A stretch of 64,000 nucleotides of DNA, taken from an uncultured Candidatus Saccharibacteria bacterium. GTDB taxonomy: Bacteria > Patescibacteriota > Saccharimonadia > Saccharimonadales > JAUPVS01. The position numbers and the translations under genes are program-made. Below the pieces are notes generated by a model. That model saw only the letters and a program-made list of their open reading frames with translations, did not search any database and was not told the DNA's origin. This document shows, in pieces, positions 4,095 to 8,723 of the stretch. The DNA lies in contig CAZVKH010000001.1 in assembly GCA_964627095.1 (NCBI GenBank), positions 8,451 to 72,450 of the forward strand, in the 5' to 3' direction. Numbering within the stretch: position 1 is the first letter of the stretch; each line of letters opens with the position of its first letter.

Positions 4095-5894
4095 TTGGGC
4101 ATCGTCATCCTAGCCATAATTATGGCCGGAGCACTCGACCTAGGTGGCTACGAACGCTATGCCAACATTGTTTTAGGCGTAACCGCTTCGTTATCGGTTA
4201 TTCCATTACTCCTAGGCATGGTTCAAGACTTACGGGACGGCCAGTACGGTGTTGATATCCTTGCCGCCACCGCCATCATTTCTTCGGTGGCTCTGGGTGA
4301 ATACTGGGCCGGTATTGTTGTCGTATTAATGTTAACTGGTGGTGAATCGCTCGAAGATTACGCCGAACACCGGGCTAAGACCGAACTCGATGCCTTGCTC
4401 AGCCGAGCACCAAAGAAAGCTCACATTCTAAAAGGCAATAAGGTTACTGATGTGCTGGCCAGCAAGGTTCAGACCAACGACAAGCTTATTATTAAGCCCG
4501 GTGAGTTGGTGCCAGTCGATGCCGTTGTCATCGAAGGTCATGCCAGTCTTGACGAATCTAGCCTAACCGGTGAAAGCTTGCCGGTCGAAAAACACGCTGG
4601 CGATGAGCTACTCAGTGGTTCGGTTAACCTGGATGGCGTTCTGACCGTTAAAGCACTGCGACCGGCCGCCGACAGTCAGTACGAACAAATCATTAAGCTG
4701 GTGCGCGGTGCAGCCAGTAACCAATCACCATTTGTACGCCTGGCCGATAAATATAGTATTCCCTTCACGATTGTTGCCTACACCATCGCTATTAGCGTCT
4801 GGGTGGCTTCAGGTGACCCAATTAGATTTTTGCAAGTAATTATTGTCGCCACCCCTTGCCCACTATTACTAGCGGCGCCAATCGCATTAATATCCGGAAT
4901 GAGCCGAGCAGCGCGTCACGGTATTATAATTAAAACTGGCTCGGCCTTAGAAAAACTGGCTCAAGTAAAAACTATTGCCCTCGACAAAACCGGTACGTTA
5001 ACGGTAGGTAAGCCAGTTGTTGGTTCGATCAAGACTTTCAATAAACATAGTCAAAATAGTGTCCTGTCAGCAGCGGCCAGCCTTGAACAGGATTCAAACC
5101 ACATTTTAGCCAAGGCCGTTGTTGCCAAAGCCAACCAGGCAAACATTAAGACCTCTAAGGTAAAGAGCCTGCGTGAAGAAGCTGGTTACGGGTTAAGCGG
5201 CCTGGTTAACCGACAGCCTGTTTTAGTTGGCAATGCCTCACTCTTGCTTAAGCACGACGTTGACCTACCCAAGAAACTCCAAGACATGGCGGCCACAACC
5301 GCCTTTGTCGCCATAGACGGCGTCCTGGCTGGTACAATTGAATTTACCGATGAAGTCCGCCCGGAGTCTAAGTCAACGCTTCAGAGGCTCCGTGATGCCG
5401 GTGTACAGCACATTCTTATGATCACCGGCGATAACGTTGCAAGCGCCAAAGCAATTGCCAAAAAAGTTGGCATAAAAGATGTTCGAGCCAACTGCTTACC
5501 AGCCGACAAATTAACTGCTGTCGAAAATATTACCAACCGACCAGTTGCTTTTGTGGGTGATGGCGTTAACGACGCACCAGTTCTGACAGCCTCGGATGTT
5601 GGCATTGCTCTGGGTGCACGTGGCTCAGCGGCGGCCAGTGAATCAGCTGATGTAGTAATTATGCTCGACGACTTTGGTCGAGTCGCCACATCTGTAGAAA
5701 TCGCCAAGCGCACCTTCTTTATTGCTAAGCAAAGTATCCTGATTGGCATTTTTATTAGCGTCGGCTTAATGTTAATTTTTGCCACCGGTAAATTTAAGCC
5801 TATTTATGGTGCTGCTCTGCAAGAAGTCGTTGACGTGGCGGTTATCTTTAATGCCTTACGTGCCCACGGTTCTTGGCGCAAAAAAACTAGCTAG
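4056..5894 (+). CDS. P1B-type heavy-metal P-type ATPase (TPCP transmembrane motif, no N-terminal metal-binding domain)
   Basis: Motifs TGES, DKTGTLT, GDGVNDAP and VATPCPLLLAAP. I take the ATG at 4056 rather than the TTG at 4038. Confidence 0.85.
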   Translation: MKKLIHYFKTYKHLGIVILAIIMAGALDLGGYERYANIVLGVTASLSVIPLLLGMVQDLRDGQYGVDILAATAIISSVALGEYWAGIVVVLMLTGGESLEDYAEHRAKTELDALLSRAPKKAHILKGNKVTDVLASKVQTNDKLIIKPGELVPVDAVVIEGHASLDESSLTGESLPVEKHAGDELLSGSVNLDGVLTVKALRPAADSQYEQIIKLVRGAASNQSPFVRLADKYSIPFTIVAYTIAISVWVASGDPIRFLQVIIVATPCPLLLAAPIALISGMSRAARHGIIIKTGSALEKLAQVKTIALDKTGTLTVGKPVVGSIKTFNKHSQNSVLSAAASLEQDSNHILAKAVVAKANQANIKTSKVKSLREEAGYGLSGLVNRQPVLVGNASLLLKHDVDLPKKLQDMAATTAFVAIDGVLAGTIEFTDEVRPESKSTLQRLRDAGVQHILMITGDNVASAKAIAKKVGIKDVRANCLPADKLTAVENITNRPVAFVGDGVNDAPVLTASDVGIALGARGSAAASESADVVIMLDDFGRVATSVEIAKRTFFIAKQSILIGIFISVGLMLIFATGKFKPIYGAALQEVVDVAVIFNALRAHGSWRKKTS

Positions 5895-6541
5895 AATAAG
5901 GCTGTCTGTAAAACTACAGTAATAAGCAGGGGTACAAACAAGTTGTCGGTTCCAGCTACGGCTAGATTCTCTATAGCGGTGGCGGCCAAGGGTAGCCAGA
6001 TAAGTAAAGGCACAAGTGGCCAGGTCAAAACAGTCCCGCTAAGTATCACTGTGCCGGTTACTATAGTTAACGATAACGTAAAGAACATCAAGGTCCCGAC
6101 CAATGTCTTGGTGTAGTTACGAATACTGTATTTATGGATAATCCCGTACTTGGTGCCTACTATCGCTGCCAGACCATCAGCCAGAGACAGATGTAAAATG
6201 GCGGCTGTAAAGACTATTGGTTCTGGTGTTAACAGAGCCGTGACGCCTATTCCAATTGGAAAAAACAACTCTCCCCAGGTGCGACGATTAACGCTGTGAA
6301 CAGCATGAAAAATATGCTGTTGCATCGATATTATAATGACAGCCAAAAAGGCCAGGCTCATAAACTCTATTTCGCGCCAGGTTAAAAAATATGGCCAAAA
6401 GGCCACAAAGGTACCAACACCAATATGCACAAACTTGCGCGCCGACTCACCGCGCATAACTTTTAGGCGCCACAGTAGCTCAGAAACTGCCAGTATCGTA
6501 AACACCCCAGTTAAAGCTAACAGGAGTGGCACGTACTGCAT
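5891..6541 (-). CDS. CTP-dependent polyprenol/dolichol/phytol-kinase-like membrane protein (CdsA superfamily)
   Basis: Polytopic protein with motifs RKFVHIGVG, ADGLAAIVGTKYG and ENLAVAGTDNLFVP, typical of the phytol/dolichol kinase family. Confidence 0.6.
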   Translation of the reverse strand: MQYVPLLLALTGVFTILAVSELLWRLKVMRGESARKFVHIGVGTFVAFWPYFLTWREIEFMSLAFLAVIIISMQQHIFHAVHSVNRRTWGELFFPIGIGVTALLTPEPIVFTAAILHLSLADGLAAIVGTKYGIIHKYSIRNYTKTLVGTLMFFTLSLTIVTGTVILSGTVLTWPLVPLLIWLPLAATAIENLAVAGTDNLFVPLLITVVLQTALF

Positions 6542-7516
6542 CTACTTATTGGGCCTAAGATCTAGGAAGTTAGCGCTTTGTAAGTTCTGTAACTGGCGTG
6601 GTGCAATGTCGAAGGTTGGTCGCTTAACATGAGTTGCAACCGAACGTCTCTGCAAGACTGGCTCAATAAAGGCCGGGCGGGGTGCTGGCTGCGGTGACAC
6701 CTTGGGGGCCGGTGGCAACTGTGATGGGTGTTTTCGGCGCTGTTCTTTGGCAGCAGCCTGTGCAGCGGCATACTTTTTGGCCGCCTTGGCCCGGCGATTT
6801 GCTTTTCGGTTAGCTAGATACACAAAGAATACCGACAAGTTATACAGCAGTATTATCGGTAGAGCGATTAGGAATTGCGTTAGTGGGTCGTAGGTAAATG
6901 GCAAAACCAGGGCCAGGGCCAAACTGCCGACAATAACGTGGCGCTCGTACTTAAGCAGCTTGCGCGGTGACATCGGCTTGATGTGGTTGATGAACAAAAT
7001 AAGCAAAGGCAACTGGAACAGTAATATAAACGTCAGTATGCAAGCCAGTGCGAAGTTAAGGTAGTCGTCGGCTGATATAAGCGGATTAACACCTGTGATT
7101 TCGACACCCTGAAAGAAATGCAAGGACATTGGTAAGGCGCCAAAATATGCAAAGGCGGCGCCGGCTACTCCTAGGGTCAAGGAAAGAAGCGTCACCATGG
7201 TAATAAGGCGGCGGGTGATTTTTTTACCAACAGCTGGTTCAATAAACGATATTATATTGTAGATTAGAGCCGGTATAGCCAGGGTTATGCCCAGGATAAA
7301 GCAGATCTTCATAATAAAGTTGAACCCACCAGCCGGCGTGGTGTAGTAAAGCTGCTGGTTGAGCGGGGCCGTCATAAAGACGATTAGCTGATCATGAAAC
7401 ATATAGGCCACACCGGCACCCACTAGCAATAGCAATGCTGGCCAGGTCAGCCGGCGACGCAGTTCCTGGACATGTCCAGAAAAAGTTAGCTTTGGTTCCA
7501 TGATCTGCCCATCCAT
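6542..7516 (-). CDS. tatC: Sec-independent translocase TatC with a ~90-aa basic Ala/Lys/Pro-rich C-terminal tail
   Basis: N-terminus ...HVQELRRRL plus a six-helix TatC-like core. The tail is KANRRAKAAKKYAAAQAAAKEQRRKHPSQLPPAPKVSPQPAPRP... Confidence 0.85.
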   Translation of the reverse strand: MDGQIMEPKLTFSGHVQELRRRLTWPALLLLVGAGVAYMFHDQLIVFMTAPLNQQLYYTTPAGGFNFIMKICFILGITLAIPALIYNIISFIEPAVGKKITRRLITMVTLLSLTLGVAGAAFAYFGALPMSLHFFQGVEITGVNPLISADDYLNFALACILTFILLFQLPLLILFINHIKPMSPRKLLKYERHVIVGSLALALVLPFTYDPLTQFLIALPIILLYNLSVFFVYLANRKANRRAKAAKKYAAAQAAAKEQRRKHPSQLPPAPKVSPQPAPRPAFIEPVLQRRSVATHVKRPTFDIAPRQLQNLQSANFLDLRPNK

Positions 7517-7543: not shown

Positions 7544-7726
7544 CTAGGCTTTTTTGGTGGCTTTTGACTTAGTAGCAGGCTCTGGTTCGTCGGCATCTGC
7601 AAAACCTTTGCGGATTTCTTTAGCCGACTGACCGACACTGCGTGCTAGTTCTGGTAGCTTTTTAGCACCAAACAGCAACAAAACAATCAATAAAACGATA
7701 ATTAATTCGTCTGTTTTTCCAAACAT
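7544..7726 (-). CDS. tatA: Sec-independent translocase TatA/E
   Basis: 60 aa: a transmembrane helix, then FGAKKLPELARSVGQSAKEIRKGF. GGAGG lies 10 nt upstream of the ATG. Confidence 0.85.
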   Translation of the reverse strand: MFGKTDELIIVLLIVLLLFGAKKLPELARSVGQSAKEIRKGFADADEPEPATKSKATKKA

Positions 7727-7799
7727 TCTTGTTGACCCTCCAAGAGTTATTATTTACAAGCATAATCATAGCAGGATTATGCTACTAAATAAAGCGTGA

Positions 7800-8027
7800 C
7801 TAAGAGCCTAAGATACTGCTTTTGACAGGGTTGCCGCCATAAGCCGACGAACCATAACCACTGGCCGCGCCCCGGCTCTGTTGACTGCTAGAGGTTGCGC
7901 CATGGTGCAATAAAGCCTTGATCATACCACTCACCCCGATTGCTGCTAAAAAGCCAGCACCAATATAACCAAGGAACTCTTTGCGGTCCATTTCCTTTTC
8001 AAAAATTGCTTGTATGTGTTTATGCAT
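7800..8027 (-). CDS. mini-protein with a Tat-signal-like N-terminus and a Gly/Ser-rich tail
   Basis: MDRKEFLGYIGAGFLAAIGVSG resembles the S/T-R-R-x-F-L-K motif plus an h-region (RK instead of RR). First gene of the tatA-tatC transcription unit. An alternative start lies at 7991. Confidence 0.5.
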   Translation of the reverse strand: MHKHIQAIFEKEMDRKEFLGYIGAGFLAAIGVSGMIKALLHHGATSSSQQSRGAASGYGSSAYGGNPVKSSILGS

Positions 8028-8234
8028 ATTTATTGTTTATTTAGTATTACTTAGGTTCATATTAGTGGTAATGGTTAGCCGATGTCAAGTAGTTTATGGT
8101 TATTTTGACAACTTCTTGCGGCGACGGTTTTTGAGCCATATATATAGAACTGTTAGGTTGTACAAAACTAAGGCGACAATTATTACTGTAAGCATGGTTC
8201 TATCATGATATAATTCCCCTTAAGTATACAGCTT

Positions 8235-8723
8235 ATGATTTATATACAACACACATTCAAGATGTTTATGGGCAAAGTTTCGGCCTCTATTGTGGTGTTT
8301 TTGTTTGTTGCTGGGATGGTTCTTACGCCGGCTTCTGCTTTGGCAGCCACTCCCGACTATAGTTGCGGGGCTTACGGTGGCAACGACTATAACAGTAACT
8401 GTCCAACCGACCCTAGTACCCCTAGCTCAAGTAGCAGTTCCTCTAGCAGCTCGACTGGCAGTAGTTCTAGCGACGGAGCGGCGGCCGACACGCCGACAAC
8501 TTCGGATACTACAACTACAACCGACGACAGCACCGCTATCGATACAAACGACAAAAGTTCTTCTACCACCAAGACAGCTGCCGAAGAAGAAGCTGGTACG
8601 TCTAATAGCAGCCGCTGGCTTTTGTTCGGCTTCTCGCTCTTTCTGCTCCTGCTAGCTCTATGGCTGATCTTCTTCTTGCTCAAGCGCCGCAAGCGCCAGC
8701 AAGAAGACAAACCAATGTTCTAG
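8235..8723 (+). CDS. secreted Ser/Thr-rich protein with C-terminal membrane anchor
   Basis: Signal-peptide-like N-terminus (...TPASALAA), a run of nine Ser, a Thr/Asp-rich middle, and a C-terminal helix followed by KRRKRQ. Confidence 0.6.
   Translation: MIYIQHTFKMFMGKVSASIVVFLFVAGMVLTPASALAATPDYSCGAYGGNDYNSNCPTDPSTPSSSSSSSSSSTGSSSSDGAAADTPTTSDTTTTTDDSTAIDTNDKSSSTTKTAAEEEAGTSNSSRWLLFGFSLFLLLLALWLIFFLLKRRKRQQEDKPMF

Follow-up and report, generated by a model that had tools for sequence, protein, structure and literature searches.

The 64,000-nt stretch of DNA analysed here (hereafter, the window) derives from an uncultured Candidatus Saccharibacteria bacterium and carries, next to the tatA and tatC genes of a twin-arginine translocation (Tat) system, a small open reading frame (ORF) that we refer to as mini. 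Comparison of this gene with its relatives revealed a conserved micro-protein family that keeps beside tatAC, displays a Tat-signal-like N-terminus in which lysine usually stands for the second arginine, and coexists with a TatC devoid of the site expected to hold that residue. With belief and doubt about evenly balanced, we favour the explanation that mini is a dedicated client of the neighbouring TatAC, namely a Tat signal joined to a very short cargo. The genes concerned are the following.

7800..8027 (stop codon included), minus strand: mini gene, encoding a 75-aa Tat-associated micro-protein (ORF list, NF038009 match, homologues)
7544..7726, minus strand: tatA, 60 aa (PF02416, TatA_B_E, 2.1e-13; TIGR01411, 59.9 bits against a cutoff of 53.9)
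6542..7516, minus strand: tatC, 324 aa (PF00902, 6.5e-46; TIGR00945, 135.8 against a cutoff of 132.7)

Sequence and ORF list agree with a first-pass annotation of this DNA on both the position of mini and its 75-aa product, MHKHIQAIFEKEMDRKEFLGYIGAGFLAAIGVSGMIKALLHHGATSSSQQSRGAASGYGSSAYGGNPVKSSILGS, and the ATG at 8027 is supported as the start codon by conservation, across the family, of the 12 residues upstream of Met13. That annotation had also proposed looking for the ORF in related genomes, where orthologues proved abundant. A word-indexed search returned 43 close homologues of 56-75 aa, and a profile search with the mini family in a database of 1.84 billion cluster representatives recovered 1,415 of these at E<=1e-3 and 380 at E<=1e-10; each of the best 150 of the 1,415 was 52-102 aa long and matched end to end. 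Mini is a real gene, conserved far above chance, and it looks single-copy, strongly conserved and Saccharibacteria-specific. Scanning of genomes with mini yielded 29 loci, nearly all labelled Saccharibacteria or Saccharimonadales, the exceptions being a few titled only 'bacterium' or 'Patescibacteria group' and one labelled Limnocylindria. The closest relative (P0001, at locus L001), 97% identical and annotated as 'hypothetical protein', belongs to a metagenome-assembled genome titled 'Patescibacteria group bacterium'. A 432-aa 'sigma factor' (P0194) that shares a cluster with the mini family is unrelated to it and was probably placed there by a clustering artefact.

Gene neighbourhoods were explored in both directions. 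Seeded with mini, the genome loci showed adjacent tatA and tatC on the same strand in 27 of 29 cases, 4 with the order mini-tatA-tatC and 23 with the order tatA-tatC-mini. The reverse test was seeded with TatC in 80 metagenome loci, some of them near-duplicates, so that the counts are not independent; gene context was decidable in 52, and mini was located within about 630 bp of tatAC in 44 of these. Its position in the 44 loci was downstream on the same strand (18), upstream on the same strand (8), upstream and divergent (13) or downstream and convergent (5). Over the 27 genome loci and these 44 together, the distance stays within about 650 bp. That mini and tatAC have remained neighbours across at least four rearrangements is an argument for a functional link between them, and the frequent placement of mini on the opposite strand shows that co-transcription with tatAC is not required. 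The description of mini as the first gene of the tatA-tatC operon is thus accurate for the window, while across loci this layout is a minority, lineage-specific one. In Bacilli, genes for Tat substrates, for instance phoD and efeB/ywbN, lie in or beside tat operons (PMC3827258), and the arrangements phoD-tatAd-tatCd and efeB/ywbN near tatCy resemble that proposed for mini in that a client gene is kept with a two-component TatAC (PMC3827258). The Bacilli clients are, however, large folded enzymes with twin-arginine (RR) signals, whereas mini comprises about 67 residues and has a disordered tail.

Profile comparison assigned mini to a known family, with E=1.1e-19 and 70.4 bits against NCBIfam NF038009.1 and residues 1-66 aligned to profile positions 2-67 of 70; this model was matched by all 44 aligned family members. 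The family name is 'twin-arginine translocation system-associated protein', and the model bears the short name 'TatB_1'. The association of the mini family with Tat is already catalogued through that name. The curated cutoff of NF038009 is 100 bits, of which mini falls short, so that the NCBI rule withholds the family name, and the top score among the individually tabulated family proteins, 82.1 bits, is also below the cutoff. Judged by these scores, mini is a divergent homologue beyond the curated boundary of the NF038009 subfamily. The two share a full-length match, equal size and genes adjoining tatAC; they differ in that the window protein scores under the curated cutoff, and NF038009 is a family named without a described function.

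The anatomy of the micro-protein was drawn from 107 distinct sequences with a median length of 67 residues, 106 of which possess the N-terminal motif. Its three conserved elements map in the window as follows.

7971..7988, minus strand: Tat-consensus-like motif D14-R15-K16-E17-F18-L19 (cap, R, K, x, F, L), with R15, F18 and L19 invariant
7917..7970, minus strand: G20-K37, putative h-region or membrane helix, hydrophobic and rich in Gly, with the near-invariant basic K37 as its last residue (family counts, model)
7833..7859, minus strand: near-C-terminal motif G57-G65 (GYGSSAYGG; G-[YF]-G-x-x-x-Y-G), with Y58, G59, Y63, G64 and G65 invariant

The family pattern starts with a short N-terminal stretch with hydrophobic spacing, followed by K-[EP]-[MV]. 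At position -1 of the motif, the capping residue is D in 48 sequences, S in 29, N and T in 14 each and P in 1, and the pair that follows is RK in 86 (81%), RR in 17 (16%), RT in 2 and RQ in 1. One acidic or polar residue separates this pair from the invariant F-L. Uncharged over a median of 19 residues and containing 20% Gly, the h-region is followed by a first charged residue that is K or R in 105 of the 106 sequences. Maximal hydrophobicity over 15 residues, KD(15), was 2.07 +/- 0.20 in the family and 1.95 in the window protein, values intermediate between the Tat (1.5-1.6) and Sec (2.1-2.4) signals of E. coli. A linker of median 18 residues (range 7-42), counted from that charged residue, leads to the motif G-[YF]-G-x-x-x-Y-G, present in 105 of the 107 sequences, 20 of which end one residue past it. 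The tail had been regarded in the first-pass annotation as a Gly/Ser/Ala-rich extension without a recognisable domain; of the nine positions that are invariant in the family, five fall within it, namely those listed above for the near-C-terminal motif.

AlphaFold2, run with the family alignment, predicted a short helix (residues 4-9) and a long one (residues 15-44) followed by a disordered tail, with a predicted local distance difference test score (pLDDT) of 84-90 at residues 21-40. The long helix begins in this model at R15, right after D14. Alignment columns that obey the -3/-1 peptidase rule in at least 90% of members lie within the h-region (after G31 and S33) or within the YG motif, and the column scan with this rule identified no conserved signal-peptidase site beyond K37 across the family. 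This absence fits an anchor, and it is plausible that mini would reside in the membrane as an uncleaved one.

Tat signals are recognised by the consensus S-R-R-x-F-L-K, a Gly-rich h-region of weak hydrophobicity with a helix breaker towards its end, and a basic 'Sec-avoidance' residue (PMC7317946). By sequence, the N-terminal 40 residues of mini bear each of the hallmarks of a Tat signal except the second arginine, which is usually lysine. In the window protein, R15-K16 occupies the place of the twin arginines, the rest of the motif is present (D14 as cap, F18, L19), and the h-region spans at least 12 residues, is weakly to moderately hydrophobic and Gly-rich, and precedes a basic residue. Among seven RR-bearing relatives confronted with the Tat-signal model TIGR01409, two passed (19.0 and 17.6 bits, cutoff 16.7) and three fell narrowly short. 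Matches of mini relatives to PF10518 were sub-threshold, and two relatives scored 18.4 and 18.8 bits with the Rieske Tat-anchor model PF10399, under its cutoff of 24. The closest parallels are therefore to be sought among Tat signals, especially the uncleaved anchors of Rieske iron-sulfur (Fe-S) proteins, with which mini shares a like motif, a Gly-rich and moderately hydrophobic helix, a trailing basic residue, a predicted helix that starts at the motif, and RR members that reach or approach the thresholds of TIGR01409, PF10518 and PF10399. It departs from them by Lys at the Arg2 position in 81% of members, by a linker with an 8-residue motif where they have a folded or cofactor-binding domain, and by its conserved n-region.

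Other small proteins invite comparison. TIGR02811, 'formate dehydrogenase region TAT target', is likewise tiny (about 66 aa), mostly Tat signal and defined by its genomic neighbourhood; unlike mini, it has no YG motif, and the best mini relative attains only a chance-level 16.4 bits against its cutoff of 48.45, with no formate dehydrogenase neighbours seen. The first-pass annotation deemed it unusual that a tat operon should encode its own tiny substrate, a claim weakened by the existing Tat-associated name of the family, by the substrates known from tat operons of Bacilli and by the other catalogued Tat-signal proteins of about 66 aa (TIGR02811). TatB, TatA and TatE (PF02416) resemble mini in being small single-helix membrane proteins encoded with tatC, and the NCBIfam nickname hints at a TatB-like third component. 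Their architecture is nonetheless reversed with respect to that of mini, in which a polar N-region leads into the helix and a disordered tail, with no amphipathic helix behind the membrane helix; the model of mini does not reproduce the TatA-type order of N-terminal membrane helix, hinge and amphipathic helix. A TatA/TatB paralogue was rejected, given an hhalign probability of 0.58% against the TatA profile and no match to PF02416 or TIGR01410/01411.

The receptor shows a counterpart to the R-K motif. In the 2026 cryo-electron microscopy (cryo-EM) structure of E. coli TatBC with the MdoD signal peptide, the first motif residue caps a long helix, H1 (PMC13323110). Arg1 is bonded to TatC E15 via a water molecule and lies stacked beneath F94, Arg2 is salt-bridged to E103 and packs against Y100, and the signal Phe sits in a pocket made of F94, L9, H12 and L13 (PMC13323110). 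The predicted start of the mini helix at R15, after D14, suggests capping as in that structure. In an alignment with E. coli TatC (chain 9dzz_A), the counterparts of H12, E15 and F94 in the window TatC are H15, E18 and F91, and Y100 and E103 are replaced by G97 and T101. Column counts over 102 TatCs of the Saccharibacteria-type clade (loci L001-L109) were as follows.

E. coli H12 column: H in 100 of 102 TatCs
E. coli E15 column: E in 101 of 102 TatCs
E. coli F94 column: F in 97 and Y in 4 of 102 TatCs
E. coli Y100 column: Y in 0 of 102 TatCs
E. coli E103 column: D or E in 0 of 102 TatCs; T in 32, S in 31, P in 13, K in 12, others fewer

As aligned, the TatC of this clade keeps the Arg1 and Phe sites and is without the Arg2 site, and the mini motif drifts at the same position. 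This match between receptor and ligand, indirect as it is, constitutes the strongest evidence suggesting that this TatC would read the N-terminus of mini.

The near-C-terminal motif of mini, in turn, recurs in a neighbouring surface protein that we call c2.

8235..8723, plus strand, divergent: c2, 162-aa secreted membrane-anchored protein with signal peptide, Ser/Thr-rich linker, and C-terminal transmembrane helix plus basic tail

The predicted mature N-terminus of the window c2 reads ATPDYSCGAYGGNDYNSNC, with the motif YSCGAYGG at 8358..8381. Across the family, the motif Y-[GN]-[SC]-G-A-Y-G stands at the mature N-terminus and is near-identical to GYGSSAYGG of mini. We found c2 beside the tat cluster in 39 of 109 loci, spread over L003-L108, always divergent except in L087 and L091, where it runs in the same direction as tatA; in L005, c2 and mini form an adjacent pair with tatAC not nearby. 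In most copies the C-terminus is a sortase-type sorting signal made up of LxxTG, a hydrophobic stretch and a basic tail; the window copy has no LxxTG. Of the 29 genome loci, 11 have a sortase gene (PF04203, 8.7e-24; e.g., L010:3641-4213) no more than a few kb away from the c2/tat cluster, and none was found in the 64-kb window. In 12 loci (L006, L007, L008, L010, L012, L013, L015, L017, L021, L024, L026 and L027, at ~4300-4700 on the minus strand), only 9-18 residues precede the YG motif of c2, with an in-frame stop just upstream, and the protein nevertheless carries the C-terminal sorting signal; so few residues leave no room for a canonical signal peptide in these 12 copies. The shared motif and neighbourhood suggest that mini and c2 may act in one envelope process.

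If mini is a client of TatAC, its path could be outlined as follows. The D-R-K-E-F-L segment would cap the helix and dock on the cytoplasmic face of the neighbouring TatC, and TatAC would insert the helix with its N-terminus inside and its C-terminus outside, the short net-positive tail thereby crossing the membrane. Insertion by Sec/YidC in that orientation would be hampered by the charge of this tail and by the basic residue behind the helix, and this would provide a reason for the use of Tat. The helix would then remain uncleaved as an anchor, in the manner of Rieske proteins, or be cut off; either fate would put the YG motif on the outer face, where the divergently encoded c2 would show YGSxAYG. 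Mini would in this way be genetically coupled to TatAC as phoD is to tatAdCd.

Regex scans for other candidate clients retrieved only the ELRRRL segment of TatC itself, frames that were spurious and a few RR-bearing c2 leaders. Apart from mini, no gene with an N-terminal Tat-like motif emerged in the 64-kb window, nor did ~763 kb of related loci, a sample biased to tat neighbourhoods, yield a convincing client of the RR type. Two full-flank tatAC loci without mini encode a 158-aa anchored protein just upstream of tatA (L040:3221-3709 and L083:1012-1500, both on the plus strand), with the KK motif variant S-K-K-Q-F-L-L-L and a weak, sub-threshold cupredoxin-like match. This protein may be another non-RR Tat client beside tatAC.

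Several observations weigh against a client role. The earlier idea of a Tat-signal-like mini-protein functionally tied to TatAC finds strong support at the level of the family; the window protein itself is recognised by no Tat-signal hidden Markov model (HMM), TIGR01409 and PF10518 included. Model Tat systems tolerate lysine poorly at either arginine position, although greater hydrophobicity of the h-region can offset the substitution (PMC7317946), a compensation consistent with the fairly hydrophobic h-region of mini. That same region is hydrophobic enough for an ordinary membrane anchor and has no conserved signal-peptidase site behind it, and the net charge of mini, +3.3 on the C-terminal and +1.2 on the N-terminal side, would predict the inverse topology under Sec/YidC insertion. 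Conservation extends over the whole 'signal', n-region included, beyond what is usual for signal peptides, and would suit a structural partner equally; besides, a disordered tail of ~30 residues has no obvious need of an exporter of folded proteins. On the receptor side, RK or RR in mini did not co-vary site by site with the TatC loop within the clade. RR minis also neighbour TatCs without E103, the match amounts to one clade-level correlation, and one TatC in three carries an acidic residue at another place in the loop. Finally, 8 full-flank tatAC loci (~15% of those decidable) are without mini, and 2 mini loci are without nearby tatAC.

Some of these points would also suit a mini that serves TatAC rather than being served by it. 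As an accessory or regulatory subunit, mini would be a signal mimic lodged, permanently or semi-permanently, in the signal-binding site and helix groove of TatC, where it could stabilise, gate or prime a TatB-less TatAC, with its outer motif contacting the cell wall or the TatC cap. We consider this unlikely. The very tight linkage across rearrangements speaks for it, as does conservation of all N-terminal 40 residues, among them the n-region helix and G23 and G31, a glycine pattern of the kind usual where helices pack; mini is also similar in size to TatA or TatB, and the NCBIfam short name 'TatB_1' points the same way. RK motifs transport poorly in model systems, which would be apt for a resident ligand, and TatB-less TatAC binds signal peptides weakly in vitro, making a third factor conceivable (PMC13323110). 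Yet mini has no TatA/B homology (hhalign 0.6%) and a reversed architecture, a resident mimic would compete with true substrates, and the conserved, extracytoplasmic-looking motif would be left unexplained. Moreover, mini lies on the opposite strand in 18 of the 44 tatC-seeded loci, where it is not co-transcribed with its putative partners, and is missing from ~15% of the decidable tatAC loci. A quite unlikely alternative dispenses with Tat altogether and makes mini a single-pass membrane micro-protein inserted through YidC/Sec, with R-K-x-F-L as an interface motif and the linkage reflecting shared envelope regulation. Hydrophobicity of the h-region, which overlaps that of Sec signals and membrane anchors, RK rather than RR in 81% of members, the missing Tat-signal HMM match of the window protein and the often opposite strand would all be accommodated. 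Against this, the invariant R, F and L together with the cap make up the contact set of the TatC-signal structure, RR variants pass a Tat-signal threshold, the net-positive tail and the basic residue after the h-region are Sec-avoidance features, adjacency to tatAC was held through at least four rearrangements, and the change in the TatC binding site parallels that in the motif.

The kinship with c2 opens yet another route, in which mini would be a Tat signal acting in trans: GYGSSAYGG would pair in the cytoplasm with YGSxAYG of c2, TatAC would export both together, and sortase would anchor c2. Such an escort would account for the YGS[GS]AYG-type motif common to mini and the tat-adjacent c2, for the c2-mini pair that persists in L005 with tatAC not nearby, for the 12 loci whose c2 carries a sorting signal and no canonical signal peptide, and for the sortase gene of 11 of the 29 genome loci; Tat co-export of a signal-less partner is established (PMC10924467). 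We nonetheless judge it very unlikely, as many c2 proteins, that of the window included, have ordinary Sec-type leaders of 31-47 residues plus paired cysteines and need no escort, c2 was detected in just 39 of the 109 loci, and a motif of 8 residues offers little to hold a stable complex together. Taken more broadly, mini might be a new Saccharibacteria-specific component of Tat, whether as the resident mimic that completes a TatB-less receptor without an Arg2 pocket or as a detachable escort of LxxTG proteins; we hold this to be rather doubtful. Were it true in either form, mini would be the main reason why such tiny genomes keep Tat.

Saccharibacteria have very small genomes and keep TatAC, and to our knowledge nobody has named the cargo that it exports. 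In the literature we found no paper on mini or the NF038009 family, and one survey merely records TatA and TatC in Saccharimonadia. Absent from the literature found are both the family-wide R-K signal paired with a TatC without E103/Y100 and the conserved C-terminal motif of mini, along with its sharing with a sortase-type neighbour. If mini is the principal client, retention of the Tat system would be explained, and a natural R-K signal facing a TatC without E103/Y100 would represent an evolutionary experiment on the reading of twin arginines that can be compared directly to the 2026 cryo-EM structure. Were mini a subunit or an escort, it would bring a new architecture to a transporter thought to be limited to TatA-type and TatC-type parts. 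In both cases, the occurrence of YGSxAYG in mini as well as in a surface protein of the sortase type points to an envelope module, so far unstudied, of this episymbiotic lineage.

The remaining signals and genes of the window tat locus are listed below.

7737..7741, minus strand: GGAGG ribosome-binding site of tatA (ATG at 7726), invariant in five aligned spacers
7759..7783, minus strand: hairpin in the mini-tatA spacer, 9-bp perfect stem AGCATAATC / GATTATGCT and 7-nt loop, lineage-specific
7765..7773, minus strand: TGCTATGAT, extended -10-like box in the mini-tatA spacer, conserved in the window, L001, L002, L030 and L031
8059..8088, minus strand: sigma-70-like promoter candidate upstream of mini, TTGACA-18 nt-TAATAT (consensus scan 10/12, pattern match only)
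5891..6541, minus strand: 216-aa polytopic membrane protein directly downstream of tatC (ORF; relatives after tatAC)

The hairpin, the GGAGG site, tatA and tatC had all been noted in the first-pass annotation and were borne out by the sequence and by Pfam/NCBIfam. Measuring 73 nt in the window, the mini-tatA spacer is 80% identical over five relatives whose proteins are ~68% identical, and its TGnTAnnAT box is kept. The hairpin is kept in L001 alone and absent from L002, L030 and L031, which have identical gene order (z about 0). The idea of a conserved terminator or attenuator was discarded: the hairpin has no T-run, was not called by the terminator scan and is kept only in the nearest relative. 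Conservation of the spacer fits the extended -10-like box better than the hairpin, and tatAC may possess an internal promoter at the TGnTAnnAT box, even in the window.

The product of 5891..6541 had been labelled polyprenol-kinase-like, a label that could not be sustained, as neither the single sequence nor an 8-sequence profile gave any Pfam, NCBIfam or PDB match. Relatives of this protein are encoded on the same strand after tatAC in L001, L002, L009, L016, L030, L031, L077, L092 and L109, directly behind tatC in most of these nine loci and 1.9 kb downstream in three. Found in the lineages closest to the window, the protein has 52 invariant positions, including R35-K36, H39 and D122-G123. 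In another set of loci (L006, L010, L011, L014, L017, L020, L021 and L022), groES-groEL lies immediately downstream of tatA-tatC-mini and convergent with it. TatC itself bears a basic, Pro-rich and variable C-terminal extension of ~90 residues (residues ~240-324; 6542..6800, minus strand), which closes with a short conserved motif that reads NFLDLR in the window and [SI]-[LI]-D-G-[LMV] or ISDFIP in relatives. Just upstream of the mini promoter candidate, a candidate 31-codon ORF (8100..8195, minus strand) would encode a hydrophobic helix with a basic tail (MLTVIIVALVLYNLTVLYIWLKNRRRKKLSK).

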